Shown here: piece by piece, positions 20,750 to 28,666 of the stretch
Numbering within the stretch: the first letter of the stretch is position 1
How the letters are laid out: each line of letters starts with the position of its first letter
Sequence record: MW876471
Source of the DNA: Escherichia phage P762
Length of the DNA: 38,954 nt
Strand: one strand, 5' to 3'
Translations under genes and position numbers: made by a program
Notes under the pieces: model-generated
Databases searched by the model: none
Told to the model about the DNA's origin: nothing
The model's input: only the letters and a program-made list of their open reading frames with translations

Positions 20750-20786
20750 AAGCAAAGAAACCCAGCAGTCCGAAGACCACTGGGTT
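20750..20786 (-). terminator. rho-independent terminator after the ligase gene (TE-like early terminator)
   Basis: minus-strand CCCAGTGGTC-TTCG-GACTGCTGGG hairpin followed by TTTCTTTGCTTG; same position as T7 TE after gene 1.3. Confidence 0.65.
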
Positions 20787-20795
20787 GACATTTAG

Positions 20796-21836
20796 TTAAC
20801 TCTTAACGGTTGGATTGTCTTCCGTCCCGCGCCAGCACTTGAAGCTAGGGTGACGAAGGGAACCATCAGGGAAGCGCTCCATGAATAGGACCTCACACTG
20901 CCATCCTTCATAGGCGTGGTTGTCACCGTTTAGCTCCTGAGTCTTAACAGCTAGTGTGAACTCGTCCTTCTGTTCTTCAGTCAGACCGCAGGCGTTAACC
21001 ACCATGCCATCCTCAAGCAGAACCTCGAAGCCGATGACCTTACCTTCGTTAGCCTTACCCGGAGCCCCCCACACGAGGCCACACACTGTCCCGTCGATGG
21101 TCTCCTCAGGCTTCATCTTCCACATGCCTGACTTCTTGCCACGCTTGTATTTACCAAGTGGGTCCTTGACTACCAGACCCTCATGTCCTTCCAGACGCTT
21201 CTGTTCGTACAGGGAGTTGAGCGACTCAAGGTCATAGACCGTGTGTGACTCAGACAGAACCCAGTCGATTTCCGGGAAGTATTTCTGGAGGAGGGGGACG
21301 ATAGCTTCTGCCTTCAGGCGTGTGACGCTATGGATAGGACCTTCGGCTTTCGGGTCTGCTATGGTTGTCATGTCGATGACACCGTAAACCACAACCTGAA
21401 GTCGTGACCGGGCGACCCAGAACTGGACCTTCTTGCCACGGCCCGGATAGCATTCAGCGAACTCCTCGTTGTTAGGCTTCAGCCACTTCGTTCGGATGAG
21501 ACCTGAGGAGGTGTTGAAGTCTACACCTTTGACCATGACCTCGCCATCAATCATTAGGCCGATACCTTCATAGCCAGCTTGACGAAGGAACCACCGCCAG
21601 TCAGCCTGAGTCCACGCATTGCCCAACTCAGAGTTCATCCACTCAAGTGCTGGCAGTGGTTTAGACTCACGGCTTAACCAATAAGTCTCACCCTCTCGCA
21701 GCACCGGAAGGTTCAACCGCACACCGTCATACTTCACTTCAGCTTCCAGCGACCCGGCTGCTGCCAGTGCTTTCGTAACGCCAGACTCAGAGTAATCTAC
21801 AGCGCGGTGCGGGTTGGTCTTGAGAGTAGTAGTCAT
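20796..21836 (-). CDS. gp1.3: ATP-dependent DNA ligase gp1.3
   Basis: 346 aa; catalytic-lysine motif KYDGVR, MVKGVDFNTSSGLIRTKW, QKRLEGHEGLVVKDP, YKRGKKSGMWKMKPE, NEGKVIGFEVLLE, PDGSLRHPSF, RGTEDNP blocks match T7 ligase. Confidence 0.97.
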   Translation of the reverse strand: MTTTLKTNPHRAVDYSESGVTKALAAAGSLEAEVKYDGVRLNLPVLREGETYWLSRESKPLPALEWMNSELGNAWTQADWRWFLRQAGYEGIGLMIDGEVMVKGVDFNTSSGLIRTKWLKPNNEEFAECYPGRGKKVQFWVARSRLQVVVYGVIDMTTIADPKAEGPIHSVTRLKAEAIVPLLQKYFPEIDWVLSESHTVYDLESLNSLYEQKRLEGHEGLVVKDPLGKYKRGKKSGMWKMKPEETIDGTVCGLVWGAPGKANEGKVIGFEVLLEDGMVVNACGLTEEQKDEFTLAVKTQELNGDNHAYEGWQCEVLFMERFPDGSLRHPSFKCWRGTEDNPTVKS

Positions 21837-22087
21837 TATTTCCAGCTCCTATAGTCATGTAGTTGCCGCAAGCACCATTGCTCACAGCTAAAGATTTCAT
21901 CTTCGGTAAATTCGCGGGAGACCAGAATCCTCCAACCGTCTGCTTCAATGATGTGGACCAGCGTTGTGCGTGAGCGCGGCAGTTCATCCATTCGGACCTC
22001 AAGTCCCGCCTCACTCATCTCGCGGTGAGTCCGTCCTAACGCTGACCACTGGCTCGGGGATGCATCAAATAACCAACGTTTACTCAT
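21836..22087 (-). CDS. gp1.2-position protein (dGTPase-inhibitor family in T7)
   Basis: 83 aa vs 85 aa in T7, same position; only weak similarity (ends ..YRSWK vs ..LKDWK). Confidence 0.6.
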   Translation of the reverse strand: MSKRWLFDASPSQWSALGRTHREMSEAGLEVRMDELPRSRTTLVHIIEADGWRILVSREFTEDEIFSCEQWCLRQLHDYRSWK

Positions 22088-22090
22088 GGC

Positions 22091-22270
22091 TTACACTCCT
22101 ACGAAGTATTTCTCTTGGTTGACCAGAGAGTCTTTACCCTCAGCGTTTCGGAAAGCGCCCTTGACACCACCGCCACGCTTGGTCTTGTTCAGCTTGCGTC
22201 CCTTCGGAATGTAATCTTCAGTCTGCTGACGTTCACGAATGCGCTCGAAGTTGATAGTGTTCTGATACAT
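22091..22270 (-). CDS. gp1.1: gp1.1-like small basic protein
   Basis: 59-aa ORF (below track cut-off) with KGRKLNKTKR block identical to T7 gp1.1. Confidence 0.65.
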   Translation of the reverse strand: MYQNTINFERIRERQQTEDYIPKGRKLNKTKRGGGVKGAFRNAEGKDSLVNQEKYFVGV

Positions 22271-22300
22271 GTGGTAGCTCCAGTTGTTTAGGTTATAGGG

Positions 22301-22345
22301 TTAATCATGAAGGCCACGACTTTGAGTCATGACCTTGAGTCTAAT
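22301..22345 (-). promoter_or_regulatory. conserved hairpin, candidate RNase III site (R1.1 position)
   Basis: RNA UUAGACUCAAGGUCAUGA-loop-GUGGCCUUCAUGAUUAA; same stem as the 15305 and 31831 sites. Confidence 0.5.
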
Positions 22346-22364
22346 CCTATAGTGATAGTTTAGG
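22342..22364 (-). promoter_or_regulatory. phage RNAP promoter (phi1.1 position)
   Basis: plus-strand aatcctatagtgatagtttag. Confidence 0.75.
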
Positions 22365-22826
22365 GTATAACCGTTGTCTGTTGCGGAAGACTTGGTTTAT
22401 ACGTTCCTGTTCAGCCTCCTCACCATAGACCTTAACCAGCTCGTAGTCATACTGGATGCGACCGTCGATGTCGCTAAGTCGATACTCAAAGTCTTTCTGA
22501 GACCCGTCTACGTGGTGCTGGTGGATGGTCAGTGTGCGTTCAGTCTTCGAGATGGTGAAGTGCTTAACGTTCTTCCCGCAGCTACCCGGCCCGGTCTTGA
22601 ACTCAGTCGGTTGGTATAGACCGTTGAACAGTGCCCAGAACTTGATGCCAACCATACGCTTGACAGTTACAGCCGGTGGTGGCGTTAGGCGCTTACGCTC
22701 TGATTCAGCAAGTTTAACCTTCAGTCTCTCGTTGTCTTTATCCCGTACCGTTACGACTCGCTCCAAGTATGCCACCTTCATGTTCAACTCTTTGATTTGC
22801 GCTTTAAGTTTTGACTTACCGAACAT
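22347..22826 (-). CDS. hypothetical protein (159 aa), N-terminal coiled coil plus beta-rich C-terminal domain
   Basis: ORF with GAGG SD between RNAP and gene 1.1; no T7 counterpart. Confidence 0.7.
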   Translation of the reverse strand: MFGKSKLKAQIKELNMKVAYLERVVTVRDKDNERLKVKLAESERKRLTPPPAVTVKRMVGIKFWALFNGLYQPTEFKTGPGSCGKNVKHFTISKTERTLTIHQHHVDGSQKDFEYRLSDIDGRIQYDYELVKVYGEEAEQERINQVFRNRQRLYPKLSL

Positions 22827-22904
22827 AGGGTTAACCTCTTCTGCGTTGGATTAAAGTGAATACTGCGAGTGCTCCCAGCCACAGGGCCAGTAACTGTAGG
22901 TATG

Positions 22905-23120
22905 TCATTTGGTCTGCTCCAGCTTGGACACTACGTCTTTCAGGTATTTCTCGTGGCTGGATTCCACAAGATAGACGAGGGTCTTGAATGGGACGTTAAG
23001 CTGTTTTGACATCTCGGTAGGAATGACCGTGGTCTTCACCAGACCCTTGCCGTTATGTTCTGTTACAGTCACGATTTGAGTCCCGCCATTAACGCCAGCC
23101 TGCTTGTGTGCAAATTTCAT
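22905..23120 (-). CDS. hypothetical protein (71 aa) immediately after the RNAP gene
   Basis: AGGAG SD 8 nt upstream of the ATG, just after the RNAP stop. Confidence 0.6.
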   Translation of the reverse strand: MKFAHKQAGVNGGTQIVTVTEHNGKGLVKTTVIPTEMSKQLNVPFKTLVYLVESSHEKYLKDVVSKLEQTK

Positions 23121-23132
23121 AACTCTCTCCTG

Positions 23133-25814
23133 TTAAGCGAATGCAAAGTCTGAAGACAAGATGTCTTCGATATTCAGTTTACCTTTCTTCGGAAGCTCAG
23201 GCAACTTGTCGCGCTGGCTTTCATGAAGCTGGTATTCAAACTGCTCGTAGAAGTCAAGCAGCACATCGTTGTCGCGGTAGGTCTCGACCATTGTCTCACG
23301 GACGCCACGGAACAGATACTCAGCGTCAGCCGGGATGGTCCCGAAGCTATCGTGAATCACTGCGAATGACATCACACCATACTTGTGGTGCGTGTGGACT
23401 ACAGTCTTGCGGAGGTGGCTACCATCTTGTGAGTGGACGAAGTTCGGGCTAATGCCTGACTCCTGCTTGTGCTTGTCCAGCTCTTTCTTCGTGCCTTTGT
23501 TGACTGTAGGCTGAAGGTTGAATGACCCTAAGAACATCAGGTTCAGACGAGTGGTATCCTTCTTGCGGTACTCCTGCCAGACAGGGAAACCATCAGGTGT
23601 GACCCAGTGTACCGGAAGGCAAGGCTTCAGGATTTCTCCAGTCTTCTTGTCTTTCACTTCAGCAGCCAGCAGCTTGGCAGCACCTTGAAGCCACTTCATC
23701 GCGTCAACCGCAGCAACTACGGTCACACTCACAGCTTCCCAAATCATCTTAGCCATGAAGCGGGACGCTTGGCTTGGTTCAGTGAACATAGCGCCAGACC
23801 CTGAGTCAATCGCTGGCATAACGATATCCTCGTAAACTTGGTCTGCGAATCCATACTCTTTCGACCCGTAGGCTAGAGTCATGACCGAACGCTTAGTGAC
23901 CTTGCGTGACATACCGTATGTCAGCCACTGACGGGCCAGCTCTCGTGTTCCCAGCTTGAGACGCTCGGTAATCTCACCAGTCTTCTTGTCCTCGTGAGTC
24001 ACCATCTCGTTGTCCGTACCGTTAACCAGCAGGACTTTAAGCTCCTCCTCAATGCGGTCAGACACAATGCGGTAGATGTCTTGGACCTTACCGGATGGCG
24101 TCAGGTTTACTGCATGTCCACCGATGTGGTCACGAAGCATCGCGCTGAAGTGCTGAATACCAGAGCAGGACCCATCGAACGCTATCGGTAGCGAGCAGGA
24201 GTAAGACAGGCCGTGGTGCATTACGCCAGCATACTCGAAGCAGAACGCGAGGAAACAGAACGGAGAGTCTAACTTGCCCCACCACTCAATACTATCCATC
24301 GGTGCCTTAGCAGTAGCCATAATGTTGTCGTGGTTGTCTTCCACCCACTTGATGCGCTCCTCGAAGGTGACTTTATCGACACCCGCACAGTTTGCACCAT
24401 GGACCTTCAGCCATTTGAAACCATCAGCGCCAATAGGCTTGCCGACTGCCAGAGTCAGGAGACCCTTCTGCATGTCGTTACCTTGAGGGTTAAACATCGG
24501 GACAGCGTAGACACGACCTCGCCAATCCATGTTGTATGGGAACCAGATAGCCTTGAACTGAGAGAACTTGTTCGCTTGGTTAACGATAAAGCTCAGTGAC
24601 AATCTTCGTGACTGTCTGGCCTTCTCGCGGCGATAGATACCAGCAGCAGCTTTCTTCCATGCCTTGAGTTCTTCTTCAGTCTCACCCGCATAATCCTCAG
24701 GCTTCAGTGGTTCCATCTGAGGGATGTCATCAATAGGCGTGTTGTTCAGCTTCTCGACCATGTTCACCACGTCCAGCACCTTCTTGTTCACTTTCCAAGG
24801 CGTATTCTGGATGATGTTAACAGCGTCATAGACTTCAGGCATGTACACGTCTTCGTAACGTGCTACCGCAGACTTAGACCCTAAGCGAATCAGTGGTAAT
24901 GGTCTGCGACCTTTGGCCCAGTACCCACCGCCTACGACACCCGTCCACGGCTTAGGTGGAACGACGCAAGGCTGATAGACCGGTGCAATACCCGCAAGAC
25001 TGAATCCACGTTGTGCCATCTTCTTGACCCAGAAGTCTGACAGGTGGACCATCTCAACGTCAGCCGCTGCATTACCAGCACCGTAACGCTTAAGCTCGAC
25101 CAGTTGTGTAGACTGGATGACAATCTCAAGCATCTTGATGCCAACGTGTACCGCTTCTGTCGGACTCCAAGTTCCCCACGCATCTTCCAGTTGTCCTTGC
25201 TCAAGCATGGATGTCTCAACAGCTTGCATGTAGGCTTTCTTGTAGGATACCCCTGCTCGCTTGTTCAGGTTCTCAGCTATCGCCTTCTTGAAGTGCTCCT
25301 GCTCCTTGTCACGGATGCGACCGAAGCGTATTTCATCCTCAAGTGTGCGACCTATCGCTGAGGCCATAGGTGTAATCGGTATCCCTTCAGGCTTGACCAG
25401 CTTGGATAGGATGACCTTTAGTATGATGACCGCAGCAGACTCGCAAGAGATACGCAGAGAGCGGTCCTTGACGGCCTTCTCTTCAGTGCTCAACATGGTG
25501 AACGCTACGCTTGGACGAGAGGTTGACATCTTCCCGTCTGGACCTTCGTGCCACTCCTTGACGGCTTGCGCAATCTTAGGGACCAGAGTCTGCATCAAAG
25601 GCTTGGCTACCTGATTGTCTGCCAGTTCCCCGCGCTCGGTCTGTCGCTCAAGGTTCTTGATGAAACGTCGCTCGCCTTCAGTGTATGCCTCGTGCTCAAG
25701 CTGAAGCTGTTTGACTGCAAGGTCTTGCCCGTAGTGGTCAGCCAGCAGGTTAAACGGCTCAATGGCGTTCGACACATCAGAGAAGTCGTGTTTGTCAATA
25801 GAGATGACGCTCAT
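23133..25814 (-). CDS. gp1: single-subunit DNA-directed RNA polymerase gp1
   Basis: 893 aa; collinear with T7 RNAP over the whole length (VPPKPWTG, WFPYNMDWRGRVYA, AFCFEYAGV, DGSCSGIQHFSAMLRD, TLAYGSKE, HDSFGT, C-terminal FAFA). Confidence 0.98.
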   Translation of the reverse strand: MSVISIDKHDFSDVSNAIEPFNLLADHYGQDLAVKQLQLEHEAYTEGERRFIKNLERQTERGELADNQVAKPLMQTLVPKIAQAVKEWHEGPDGKMSTSRPSVAFTMLSTEEKAVKDRSLRISCESAAVIILKVILSKLVKPEGIPITPMASAIGRTLEDEIRFGRIRDKEQEHFKKAIAENLNKRAGVSYKKAYMQAVETSMLEQGQLEDAWGTWSPTEAVHVGIKMLEIVIQSTQLVELKRYGAGNAAADVEMVHLSDFWVKKMAQRGFSLAGIAPVYQPCVVPPKPWTGVVGGGYWAKGRRPLPLIRLGSKSAVARYEDVYMPEVYDAVNIIQNTPWKVNKKVLDVVNMVEKLNNTPIDDIPQMEPLKPEDYAGETEEELKAWKKAAAGIYRREKARQSRRLSLSFIVNQANKFSQFKAIWFPYNMDWRGRVYAVPMFNPQGNDMQKGLLTLAVGKPIGADGFKWLKVHGANCAGVDKVTFEERIKWVEDNHDNIMATAKAPMDSIEWWGKLDSPFCFLAFCFEYAGVMHHGLSYSCSLPIAFDGSCSGIQHFSAMLRDHIGGHAVNLTPSGKVQDIYRIVSDRIEEELKVLLVNGTDNEMVTHEDKKTGEITERLKLGTRELARQWLTYGMSRKVTKRSVMTLAYGSKEYGFADQVYEDIVMPAIDSGSGAMFTEPSQASRFMAKMIWEAVSVTVVAAVDAMKWLQGAAKLLAAEVKDKKTGEILKPCLPVHWVTPDGFPVWQEYRKKDTTRLNLMFLGSFNLQPTVNKGTKKELDKHKQESGISPNFVHSQDGSHLRKTVVHTHHKYGVMSFAVIHDSFGTIPADAEYLFRGVRETMVETYRDNDVLLDFYEQFEYQLHESQRDKLPELPKKGKLNIEDILSSDFAFA

Positions 25815-25883: not shown

Positions 25884-25906
25884 TAGTCCTATAGTGATAG
25901 TTAAGT
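25884..25906 (-). promoter_or_regulatory. phage RNAP promoter directly upstream of the RNAP gene
   Basis: plus-strand agtcctatagtgatagttaag about 75 nt upstream of the gene 1 ATG. Confidence 0.6.
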
Positions 25907-28304: not shown

Positions 28305-28463
28305 TTAATTACACTGAGACACCAGAGAACATACGAGAGTCTCGACCCACCCGACCCACTGACTTCCAGCAGTAACGCCAGCAGCAAGTAGAACAGCAGC
28401 AAGAAACCTGTATGTAGATCGATTGGTCGCCAGAGCTTTAAGTACAGCTTTGGTCTTTGCCAT
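28305..28463 (-). CDS. gp19.5-position small membrane protein (52 aa)
   Basis: AGGAGG SD; MAKTKAVLKALATNRSTYRFLAAVLLAAGVTAGSQWVGWV..., last gene before the genome end. Confidence 0.5.
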   Translation of the reverse strand: MAKTKAVLKALATNRSTYRFLAAVLLAAGVTAGSQWVGWVETLVCSLVSQCN

Positions 28464-28643: not shown

Positions 28644-28666
28644 CTTCCCTATAGTGATAGTTAAGT
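28644..28666 (-). promoter_or_regulatory. phage RNAP promoter (phiOR position, after the terminase gene)
   Basis: plus-strand ttccctatagtgatagttaag. Confidence 0.75.

Follow-up and report, generated by a model that had tools for sequence, protein, structure and literature searches.

What are the two small genes that lie between the RNA polymerase gene and gene 1.1 of Escherichia phage P762, and do they belong there? The DNA analyzed, referred to here as the window, is the whole 38,954-nucleotide stretch of sequence record MW876471. It is a Kayfunavirus genome of the K1F/EcoDS1 group, and the order of features in the region is gene 1, ORF71, ORF159, the phage promoter phi1.1, a hairpin, and gene 1.1. 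The two genes and those that bound them are as follows.

23133..25814, minus strand: gene 1, T7-type single-subunit RNA polymerase, 893 aa (ORF list; every matching phage record labels it RNA polymerase)
22905..23120, minus strand: ORF71, small basic protein, 71 aa, pI 9.5 (phrog_8082)
22347..22826, minus strand: ORF159, gene 1.05-family protein, 159 aa, pI 9.8 (PF25755; phrog_8103)
22091..22270, minus strand: gene 1.1 homologue, 59 aa, which closes the interval downstream (Pfam PF08200 Phage_1_1, E 1e-10; phrog_4383)

Two genuine conserved protein genes

ORF71 and ORF159 are both genuine, conserved protein-coding genes in the interval from gene 1 to gene 1.1. Both reading frames reported in the initial annotation are present after the RNA polymerase gene, on the minus strand, and its description of their SD sequences as good holds for each (CAGGAGAGAGTT-ATG for ORF71 and AGAAGAGGTTAACCCT-ATG for ORF159). 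GC3 values of 0.61 for ORF71 and 0.59 for ORF159, set beside 0.61 for both the RNA polymerase and the ligase genes, indicate native codon composition. The ratio dN/dS, computed against EcoDS1, Bas105, and Dev2, is 0.05-0.15 for ORF71, a mark of strong purifying selection, and 0.17-0.25 overall for ORF159; neither is therefore a chance ORF. The two are not copies of a single gene, as hhalign detects no relatedness between them (probability 0.1%).

The same annotation called the genes "extra," which is true only by comparison with T7: ORF159 is of the gene 1.05 type, and ORF71 is near-core in Kayfunavirus. It is very nearly certain that ORF71 belongs to phrog_8082 and ORF159 to the gene 1.05 family. 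Both genes are already known, having been deposited in hundreds of phage genomes, one of them under a T3-derived family name. The result thus has limited weight as a discovery; it corrects the idea that ORF71 and ORF159 are unusual, along with the database labels "gp1.1," "microtubule-binding protein," and "fusion protein."

ORF71, a near-universal Kayfunavirus gene

ORF71 starts 12 nt after the stop codon of gene 1. The phrog_8082 profile matches it full length, with residues 1-66 on profile positions 1-66 of 66 (E 5.3e-41). This family is confined to Kayfunavirus and is found in 219 phage records, K1F among them. Essentially every Kayfunavirus record carries the gene, and it is kept in 9 of the 9 genomes compared, while neighboring cassettes come and go. 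The counterparts in K1F ("unknown," AAZ72969) and in EcoDS1 and Dev2 (both "gp1.1") are 82-94% identical to ORF71 and likewise follow gene 1, with no material difference. Is ORF71 then a member of the T7 gene 1.1 family, as the label in EcoDS1 and Dev2 would have it? This was rejected, as ORF71 has no Pfam match of any kind at E<=1. The "gp1.1" labels are misnomers, because the Phage_1_1 model matches the downstream 59-aa ORF instead. The predicted fold of ORF71, a three-stranded beta meander followed by a short helix and a long C-terminal helix, is generic, and the fold search was uninformative, with no significant match to a solved structure.

ORF159, a gene 1.05-type protein

The identity of ORF159 comes from several matches. 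Pfam PF25755 (Phage_T3_1_05) aligns to residues 58-128 over model positions 2-73 of 73, scoring 89 bits where the curated gathering cut-off is 27 (E 2e-25), phrog_8103 matches with E 5e-58, and the EcoDS1 protein annotated gp1.05 is 82% identical. The protein carries a net charge of +11, and its AlphaFold model (mean pLDDT 90) has a long helix (residues 3-47), six strands (53-133), and a second helix (135-151), corresponding to the following parts of the gene.

22686..22820, minus strand: N-terminal amphipathic helix, codons 3-47 of ORF159 (AF2 helix 3-47)
22428..22670, minus strand: conserved gene 1.05 beta domain of ~80 aa and six strands, codons 53-133 (AF2 strands, pLDDT 92-97)
22374..22424, minus strand: C-terminal Glu/Arg-rich helix, codons 135-151 (AF2 helix 135-151)

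The N-terminal helix has an unbroken heptad register (L7-I11-L14-V18-L21-V25-R28-N32-L35-L39, with Asn32 in the core), and this a/d pattern supports a coiled coil; codons 3-47 probably encode a dimerizing one. The coiled coil and beta-rich C-terminal part predicted earlier for the 159-aa protein are thus borne out by the model and the heptads together. The helix is the most variable part of the family, with dN/dS of 0.29-0.44 versus 0.10-0.16 in the domain. The tail after the C-terminal helix is also poorly conserved (dN about 0.5 between relatives) and runs into the promoter described below.

How widespread is this domain? At 50% identity, a set of 1.84 billion proteins yields 63 representatives of the PF25755-type family, which is confined to Autographiviridae genomes of ~40 kb, with 198 phage records across Studiervirinae, Melnykvirinae, and Scottvirus. 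A search of 185,579 bacterial species genomes, made with a degenerate DNA pattern of limited sensitivity, gave a single true match, on a Sphingobium contig carrying phage replication genes. The genes for the domain always lie in early or DNA-metabolism regions: after the RNA polymerase gene in Studiervirinae, before it in Pifdecavirus, near a SAM hydrolase gene in Kaonashi, abutting DNA polymerase A in Sphingomonas phage Scott, and, on the Sphingobium contig, close to a ligase-like gene and one for a 5'-3' exonuclease. In T3-like phages, Berlinvirus, Elunavirus, and others, this family fills the slot between gene 1 and gene 1.1. Across Autographiviridae, the domain occurs alone, behind a coiled coil (as in ORF159), or behind a membrane anchor plus coiled coil. 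The region N-terminal to it in relatives is accordingly an unrelated coiled coil, a transmembrane (TM) helix with a coiled coil, or nothing.

The T3-type gp1.05 proteins (T3, phiSG-JL2, EcoDS1, 285P, and vB_EamP-L1) share both the domain and the slot with ORF159. In T3 itself, the protein consists of nothing but the domain, at about 90 aa (the length listed for the T3-like phage AP5), whereas ORF159, like its equivalents in other Kayfunavirus phages, has an additional coiled coil of 50 residues. In phiSG-JL2, phi1.1 lies over the 3' end of gene 1.05 and is followed by the R1.1 hairpin, a layout identical to that of the window, but the window has neither the T3-type phi1.05 promoter nor the origin annotated upstream of the gene. 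The membrane-anchored relatives (those of Citrobacter phage SH1 and Klebsiella phage vB_Kpn_K12P1.1, both labeled "fusion protein," and of Pectobacterium phage PP74) have in common with ORF159 the C-terminal domain, the coiled-coil spacer, and the position after the RNA polymerase gene. They differ in their N-terminal TM helix, which ORF159 lacks (maximum 19-residue hydropathy of 0.32 versus 2.0-3.7), and mostly have Cys at position 105, where ORF159 has His. Their positively charged residues come after the TM helix and not before it, which by the positive-inside rule suggests that the domain is cytoplasmic. Position 105 is Cys in 21 and His in 9 of the TM forms and is almost always His in the coiled-coil forms. 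The swap from H105 to Cys could be tied to membrane anchoring, which would point to a periplasmic disulfide, though it is enriched rather than exclusive there and confounded by phylogeny.

For the initial annotation, identification as widely conserved gene 1.05-type proteins of known function would have counted against its reading. ORF159 is a widely conserved gene 1.05-type protein, but the known function falls away: a literature search on gp1.05, PF25755, and Kayfunavirus early genes turned up no functional study, only genome-announcement tables in which the protein is listed as hypothetical.

Conserved residues of the gene 1.05 domain

Residue conservation was counted by column in 55 representatives at <=50% identity, all of which match PF25755. 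The family-invariant residues G79, C83, Q103, F113, G122, and R123 are all present in ORF159, as are the near-invariant F76, G81, G84, V87, D107, G108, K111, and Y115. H105 and D119 also rank among the invariant or near-invariant residues of its domain, together with Q103, D107, K111, F113, Y115, G122, and R123. Position 105 is His in 36 of the representatives and Cys in 16. The residues G79-P-G-S-C83-G-K85 form a glycine-rich loop, and the residue following K85, a Thr in 27/55 relatives, is Asn in ORF159.

Such a loop raises the question of a P-loop NTPase. This candidate was rejected, as the Asn after K85 departs from the Walker A pattern G-x4-G-K-[ST] and the AlphaFold model sets the loop between two beta strands instead of in a strand-loop-helix. 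The best PDB sequence match of the family profile is a kinesin P-loop at a nonsignificant E of 0.5, and sequence and profile searches of the PDB returned nothing significant for either protein. A Foldseek search of the PDB with ORF159 gave nothing at E <= 0.001; its weak resemblances, to bL19 (probability 0.5-0.6), Sso7d (0.69), and PH-like domains, are all nonsignificant at E >= 0.15. Neither ORF71 nor ORF159 matched anything in NCBIfam or any entry in PADLOC, and the literature searched offered no link to anti-defense proteins.

A cassette inside a promoter

The genomes of K1F, Vec13, PSK1, Mt1B1_P3, and 22664BS1 lack gene 1.05 and have identical flanks, with an intact phi1.1 at the empty site. 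Gene 1.05 is an optional, dispensable cassette that sits exactly inside the upstream edge of phi1.1. The features involved are listed below.

22827..22904, minus strand: conserved, noncoding spacer between ORF71 and gene 1.05, whose 3' end supplies the gene 1.05 SD and the phi1.1 5' edge
22826..22836, minus strand: upstream cassette boundary, GGTTAACCCTA, the phi1.1 5' edge in genomes without gene 1.05, ending in the A of the gene 1.05 ATG
22342..22364, minus strand: phi1.1 phage RNA polymerase promoter, CCTAAACTATCACTATAGGATTA, -17 to +6, one of about 10 consensus copies in the window
22295..22350, minus strand: predicted stable hairpin at the 5' end of the phi1.1 transcript (MFE -25.2 kcal/mol, z -3.4)

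Empty sites read GAGGTTAACCCTAAACTATCACTATAGG, and filled sites read GAGGTTAACCCTA followed directly by TG.... In the window, gene 1.05 lies between the 5' edge of the promoter and a rebuilt copy, which covers the last codons and stop codon of ORF159 and has the G of the TAG stop as +1. A promoter overlapping the end of gene 1.05 is also annotated, at the corresponding position, in the EcoDS1 and phiSG-JL2 records. No stretch from gene 1 to ORF159 matches the promoter consensus; all that remains is GGTTAACCCTA, the first 11 nt of a promoter. Nor does the interval hold a second promoter or an AT-rich origin block like that of T7.

The spacer has a 67-nt core (22838-22904) that is unique within the window and 93-97% identical in 8 relatives, versus 74-95% for the adjacent ORF71 coding sequence. 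An RNase III hairpin was considered for the spacer and rejected, since it is less structured than shuffled sequence (z +1.19). Rfam gave no match on 21800-23400. For the hairpin at 22295-22350, 0 of 200 shuffles were as stable, the core is nearly invariant in 8 relatives, and phiSG-JL2 has the RNase III site R1.1 annotated at the same relative position; RNase III probably processes the transcript here, at a site of the R1.1 type. An apparent covariation of gene 1.05 with gene 1.2 type in 8 genomes is broken by Dev2 and was rejected.

Expression and possible roles

When would these genes be expressed? Phage promoters around the interval are found only at 25884-25906 and 22342-22364. One of these lies 74 nt upstream of gene 1, and a TE-like terminator lies at 20759-20786, after the ligase gene. 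ORF71 and ORF159 fall between gene 1 and this terminator, and no phage promoter separates gene 1 from ORF159. By this arrangement, both should be transcribed with gene 1, on early host RNA polymerase transcripts and from the phage promoter upstream of gene 1.

The characterized class I and early class II accessory proteins of T7 (Ocr, gp0.4, gp0.7, gp1.2, and gp2) are mostly host-directed inhibitors. Ocr (gp0.3), gp0.4, gp1.2, and gp2 resemble ORF71 and ORF159 in being small, dispensable, variably present products of the early region; this is an analogy only, and there is no similarity in sequence or fold. Our tentative preference, held at clearly below even confidence, is that ORF71 and gp1.05 are accessory early factors acting on the host and not on phage DNA replication. 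In such a scheme, gp1.05 would dimerize through its coiled coil and display two cytoplasmic beta domains, whose invariant polar pocket (C83, Q103, H105, D107, K111, D119, R123, and the G-x-G-x-C-G-K loop) would take up a small ligand or hold on to a conserved component of the host. The pocket is a putative one, drawn from conservation. In the anchored relatives, the gene 1.05 domain would be tethered to the inner membrane, while ORF71 may bind its partner through an exposed sheet. The explanation as a whole, which blends the identity claims with mechanistic inference, we regard as evenly balanced. Several observations sit uneasily with a host-directed role. No experiment or homology ties ORF71 or ORF159 to any target, and the PADLOC, NCBIfam, and PDB comparisons gave no match and the fold searches no information. 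So many invariant polar residues would be more usual in a catalytic or ligand-binding site than in a fast-evolving protein-protein inhibitor, and the place of the domain among replication genes in Scott and on the Sphingobium contig fits a role in DNA metabolism equally well.

What else might the two proteins be? The domain could be a small ligand- or metal-binding module (one that binds nucleotides, perhaps as a "sponge," holds Zn through C83 and H/C105, or acts as a mini-enzyme), for which the coiled coil or membrane anchor would set only valency and location. Invariant C83, Q103, G122, and R123, near-invariant D107, K111, D119, and K85, and the His/Cys exchange at position 105, typical of metal ligands, all speak for it, as do the likeness of the G79-to-K85 loop to glycine-rich phosphate-binding loops, the kinesin P-loop as top (if nonsignificant) PDB profile match, and the fact that many phages encode the domain by itself (75-100 aa) as a whole protein. 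It is nonetheless doubtful: there is no significant likeness to known nucleotide- or metal-binding folds, the motif sits in a beta hairpin, the [ST] after GK is unconserved, each chain offers only two Cys/His positions, and the enrichment of C105 in TM-anchored members may reflect a disulfide or shared ancestry. Rather unlikely, too, is a gp1.05 that binds nucleic acid and helps, at the origin/phi1.1 region, to replicate phage DNA or handle transcripts; DNA binding near the origin had been raised as a question in the initial annotation. The basic character of ORF159 would suit such a protein, and its weak, nonsignificant Foldseek matches, bL19 and Sso7d, are small nucleic acid-binding barrels; the gene directly follows the annotated origin in the T3-like phage phiSG-JL2 and has replication genes as neighbors in Scott and on the Sphingobium contig. 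However, T7 and K1F manage replication without gene 1.05, as do at least four further Kayfunavirus phages, the domain is membrane anchored in many relatives, every fold match has E >= 0.15, and neither an AT-rich origin block nor a second promoter lies beside the gene in the window.

For ORF71, a role as accessory factor of the phage RNA polymerase, whether modulator or assembly partner, in place of a host-directed one is improbable. Its start so close behind gene 1 with its own SD, its near-constant presence in Kayfunavirus among varying cassettes, and the strong purifying selection on it would fit, but the argument is one of position, and a 76-aa ORF separates gene 1 from the ORF71 homologue in EcoDS1, PSK1, Mt1B1_P3, and 22664BS1. 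The fold, moreover, is generic, and to our knowledge the T7, T3, and SP6 RNA polymerases require no subunit of this kind and manage without it. Finally, might both ORFs be selfish insertions of the homing-endonuclease type or nonfunctional chance ORFs? Homing-endonuclease genes in T7-like phages show sharp presence/absence at fixed sites, and so does gene 1.05; sporadic presence at a fixed site is seen for ORF159 only. The earlier statement that the two carry no HNH or GIY-YIG motifs is upheld, with neither these nor any other nuclease domain found by Pfam at E<=1. Its corollary, that they are not obvious selfish insertions, stands as regards endonuclease content but has to accommodate the precise presence/absence of gene 1.05 as a cassette. 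Given also purifying selection and native codon composition in both genes, a gene 1.05 family old enough to span several Autographiviridae subfamilies, and the near-universality of ORF71 in Kayfunavirus, the selfish or chance origin is effectively refuted, with almost no probability left to it.

Returning to factors that act on the host, one more specific speculation is that the gene 1.05 domain is a small fold not recognized before, in which a conserved site (C83, Q103, H/C105, D107, K111, D119, R123, and the glycine-rich hairpin) binds a ligand or metal. It would be used early, in free, dimerized, or membrane-tethered form, against a conserved host function or an immune signal, with ORF71 as a second, genus-specific early effector; in this full form we consider the idea unlikely. 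PF25755 is in any case a compact, deeply conserved, phage-restricted domain with enzyme-like invariant residues, and a reasonable target for structural and anti-defense screening. Gene 1.05 amounts to a clean knock-in/knock-out cassette made by nature within a promoter, so close relatives with and without it are already at hand for phenotype tests.

Two genes of known families

The T7-type RNA polymerase gene (gene 1) is followed by two open reading frames with good Shine-Dalgarno sequences, ORF71 (71 codons) and ORF159 (159 codons), both as the initial annotation described them. Their GC3 values, 0.61 and 0.59, respectively, equal those of the flanking core genes, and their dN/dS ratios (Nei-Gojobori, against EcoDS1, Bas105, and Dev2) are 0.05 to 0.15 for ORF71 and 0.17 to 0.25 for ORF159. 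Given these three properties, both are real genes under selection. Are they also, as first proposed, extra genes? They are so only relative to T7: both belong to known families, gene 1.05 (ORF159) being a named T3-type gene. The earlier failure to see homing-endonuclease motifs was borne out, as neither HNH, GIY-YIG, nor any other nuclease family was found in either protein (Pfam, E ≤ 1). Homing endonucleases and chance ORFs are excluded as readings of the pair.

The features of the region are as follows.

25884-25906, minus: phage-type promoter ACTTAACTATCACTATAGGACTA, about 74 nt upstream of the RNAP start codon
23133-25814, minus: gene 1, RNAP (ORF list)
22905-23120, minus: ORF71 (ORF list)
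22347-22826, minus: ORF159 (ORF list)
22342-22364, minus: phi1.1 promoter copy, overlapping the last ORF159 codons, +1 being the G of the TAG stop
22295-22350, minus: hairpin directly 3' of phi1.1, -25.2 kcal/mol, z -3.4, nearly invariant
22091-22270, minus: gene 1.1 homologue, 59 aa (Pfam Phage_1_1)
21836-22087, minus: gene in the 1.2 slot, 83 aa, phrog_6515
20796-21836, minus: ligase
20759-20786: TE-like terminator

The 1.3-kb region around both ORFs is matched by 241 phage records at 80 to 95% DNA identity, nearly all of them Kayfunavirus genomes (Studiervirinae) of ~39 to 40 kb; the best matches are Bas105, TM1, and EcoDS1 (about 90%). A complete genome is represented by the window, in reverse orientation, with its phage genes on the minus strand. 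Relative to the standard T7-like map, it seems to be circularly permuted: going by K1F (RNAP start 2566), the physical left end is expected near 28400, and a promoter copy (28648-28656) sits just past that point. The label "N4-like RNA polymerase" that T7-type RNAPs carry in several RefSeq records is questionable.

The gene 1.05 family

The main interest of the region lies in a deeply conserved, phage-restricted domain, PF25755, and in the promoter-embedded cassette that carries it. ORF159 is itself a gene 1.05-type protein: over residues 58 to 128 it scores 89 bits (cut-off 27) with PF25755, "Enterobacteria phage T3 gene 1.05 protein." It also matches phrog_8103, and its homologue in EcoDS1, to which it is 82% identical, has carried the name gp1.05 since genome deposition. 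By tblastn, the domain occurs in 198 phage records, spread over T3-like Teetrevirus, Berlinvirus (BA14, 285P), Elunavirus L1, Pectobacterium and Pseudomonas Studiervirinae, Melnykvirinae, and Scottvirus. Across 1.84 billion representatives, exhaustive scanning with HMMER turned up only 63 clusters with it at E ≤ 1e-3; a profile search gave 356 clusters at 90% identity, in which nearly all long contigs are ~40 kb. When 185,579 bacterial species genomes were scanned with a degenerate pattern, one true match emerged, an 86-aa PF25755 protein on Sphingobium sp. CCH11-B1 contig NZ_LSJY01000082.1 (2696-2956 of the extracted locus, L011). Since its neighbors are a 5'-3' exonuclease, an NT5C-like nucleotidase, and a ligase N-terminal-like gene, this contig is probably a prophage or phage DNA in the assembly. 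By this distribution, the family is old, compact, and essentially confined to the Autographiviridae; gene 1.05 is "extra" solely relative to T7.

An AlphaFold model of ORF159 built from 68 sequences (mean pLDDT 90) has a helix at 3-47, six strands at 53-133, and a helix at 135-151. The a/d heptad register of the first helix is unbroken over L7-L39 and places Asn32 in the core, so that the proposed N-terminal coiled coil and beta-rich C-terminal domain both stand. Gene 1.05 representatives come in three architectures: the domain alone (75 to 100 aa, T3 type); coiled coil plus domain (145 to 180 aa, the Kayfunavirus type, including the window); and an N-terminal hydrophobic helix, long coiled coil, and domain (160 to 200 aa; SH1 and K12P1.1, annotated "fusion protein"). 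Across 55 representatives at ≤50% identity, G79, C83, Q103, F113, G122, and R123 are invariant and F76, G81, G84, K85, V87, D107, G108, K111, Y115, and D119 nearly so, while position 105 is His in 36 and Cys in 16. In the many relatives with an N-terminal TM helix and long coiled coil (e.g., P0272, P0276, P0286, P0290, P0294, and P0298), this position is Cys in 21 and His in 9; in coiled-coil-only forms it is almost always His.

Within ORF159, dN/dS is 0.10 to 0.16 for the domain versus 0.29 to 0.44 for the coiled coil. In the C-terminal tail, alignment between relatives is essentially impossible, and some close relatives carry a near-identical domain behind unrelated coiled-coil sequence. The domain is the selected part of gp1.05, and the N terminus is an exchangeable oligomerization or tethering module.

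The loop G-x-G-x-C-G-K-(T) resembles a phosphate-binding loop, and the best PDB sequence match of the family profile is the kinesin P-loop, though at a nonsignificant E of 0.5. In the model, however, the loop connects two beta strands, and its Ser/Thr position varies, which rules out a P-loop NTPase. The label "microtubule-binding protein" on the ORF159 homologues in MT808983 and MK610268 is questionable; the coiled coil or the P-loop-like motif probably prompted it.

What might these proteins do? We infer that gp1.05 and the ORF71 product are early accessory proteins in the cytoplasm; in anchored gene 1.05 relatives, positive charges come after the TM helix, an arrangement that under the positive-inside rule would put the domain on the cytoplasmic side. 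By analogy with characterized T7 early proteins, we tentatively favor host-directed action (takeover or counter-defense) for both, with gp1.05 acting as a coiled-coil dimer that would display two conserved pockets, a possibility that still falls well short of an even chance. The invariant polar residues and the His/Cys swap at position 105 would also suit a ligand-binding, metal-binding, or catalytic gp1.05, which we consider unlikely. A nucleic acid or replication role, to which the basic charge of gp1.05 and the replication genes adjoining the domain gene in distant phages point, seems somewhat more doubtful again.

A mosaic of cassettes

Compared in nine genomes (the window, EcoDS1, Bas105, Dev2, K1F, Vec13, PSK1, Mt1B1_P3, and 22664BS1), the interval from gene 1 to ligase reads as a mosaic of cassettes. 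ORF71 and gene 1.1 are present in all nine, with a 1-nt frameshift splitting the latter in the record of K1F. A 76-aa ORF (phrog_28104) lies between gene 1 and ORF71 in EcoDS1 (1684-1914 of its locus, L001), PSK1, Mt1B1_P3, and 22664BS1 but not in the window, where the gap is 12 nt (23121-23132). Four genomes (the window, EcoDS1, Bas105, and Dev2) carry gene 1.05 and the other five lack it; at least three unrelated genes occur in the 1.2 slot.

The gene 1.05 indel is exact among the compared genomes. Empty sites contain an intact phi1.1 promoter, GCAGAAGAGGTTAACCCTAAACTATCACTATAGG; in filled sites, GCAGAAGAGGTTAACCCTA abuts the TG of gene 1.05, and the cassette is followed by CTAAACTATCACTATAGG. 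These sequences place the insertion between promoter positions -14 and -13. The retained 5' edge of the promoter and a pre-existing AGAGG form the translation start of gene 1.05, and the cassette's own 3' end restores the promoter. The window's cassette boundaries form an 11/12-nt imperfect direct repeat (GGTTAACCCTA and GGTTATACCCTA), a pattern that recombination at promoter sequences would give. Such an exact presence/absence indel shows that, in some hosts at least, phages can grow without gene 1.05. Full-length, coiled-coil-type gene 1.05 occurs in roughly 90 of ~217 ORF71-bearing records (approximate tblastn counts).

Several annotations in this interval deserve comment. The K1F gene 1.1 homologue (about 2560-2767 of locus L009) appears split by a 1-nt insertion when set against the window (AGACTTGAAGG versus AGAC-TGAAGA), which may reflect either a true frameshift or an error in sequencing; genes 1.1 and 1.2 are left unannotated in that record. 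The phrog_6515 gene in the 1.2 slot, labeled "dGTPase inhibitor," is not detectably similar to K1F's T7-type gp1.2 (phrog_2949, L009 2772-3035), and its label may be positional rather than homology based. PSK1 has a third gene type in this slot. The label "gp1.1" on ORF71 homologues in EU734172 and NC_023558 is questionable.

Transcription and a conserved spacer

The phage promoter consensus, CCTAAACTATCACTATAGGA, has about 10 copies in the window. In phiSG-JL2, the annotated order is gene 1, phi1.05 and origin, gene 1.05, phi1.1 overlapping the gene end, RNase III site R1.1 (where the window has its 22295-22350 hairpin), and gene 1.1. The window repeats exactly the second half of this layout but lacks the T3-type upstream promoter and origin: no consensus match lies between gene 1 and ORF159, and the interval has no AT-rich block. 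Given the promoter at 25884-25906, the phage polymerase may transcribe its own gene together with ORF71 and ORF159. T7 and T3 are not known to have a phage promoter at that place. ORF71 and ORF159 lie in a unit that runs from the early promoters and the 25884-25906 promoter via gene 1 to the TE-like terminator.

The non-coding spacer between ORF71 and gene 1.05 (22827-22904, minus) has a core, 22838-22904, that is 93 to 97% identical in eight relatives, outdoing the adjacent ORF71 coding sequence (74 to 95%). The spacer is kept in genomes with and without gene 1.05, is unstructured as RNA, has no Rfam match, and is single copy in the genome. It may act at the DNA level, for example as an origin, as a primase site, or as a site for a host factor.
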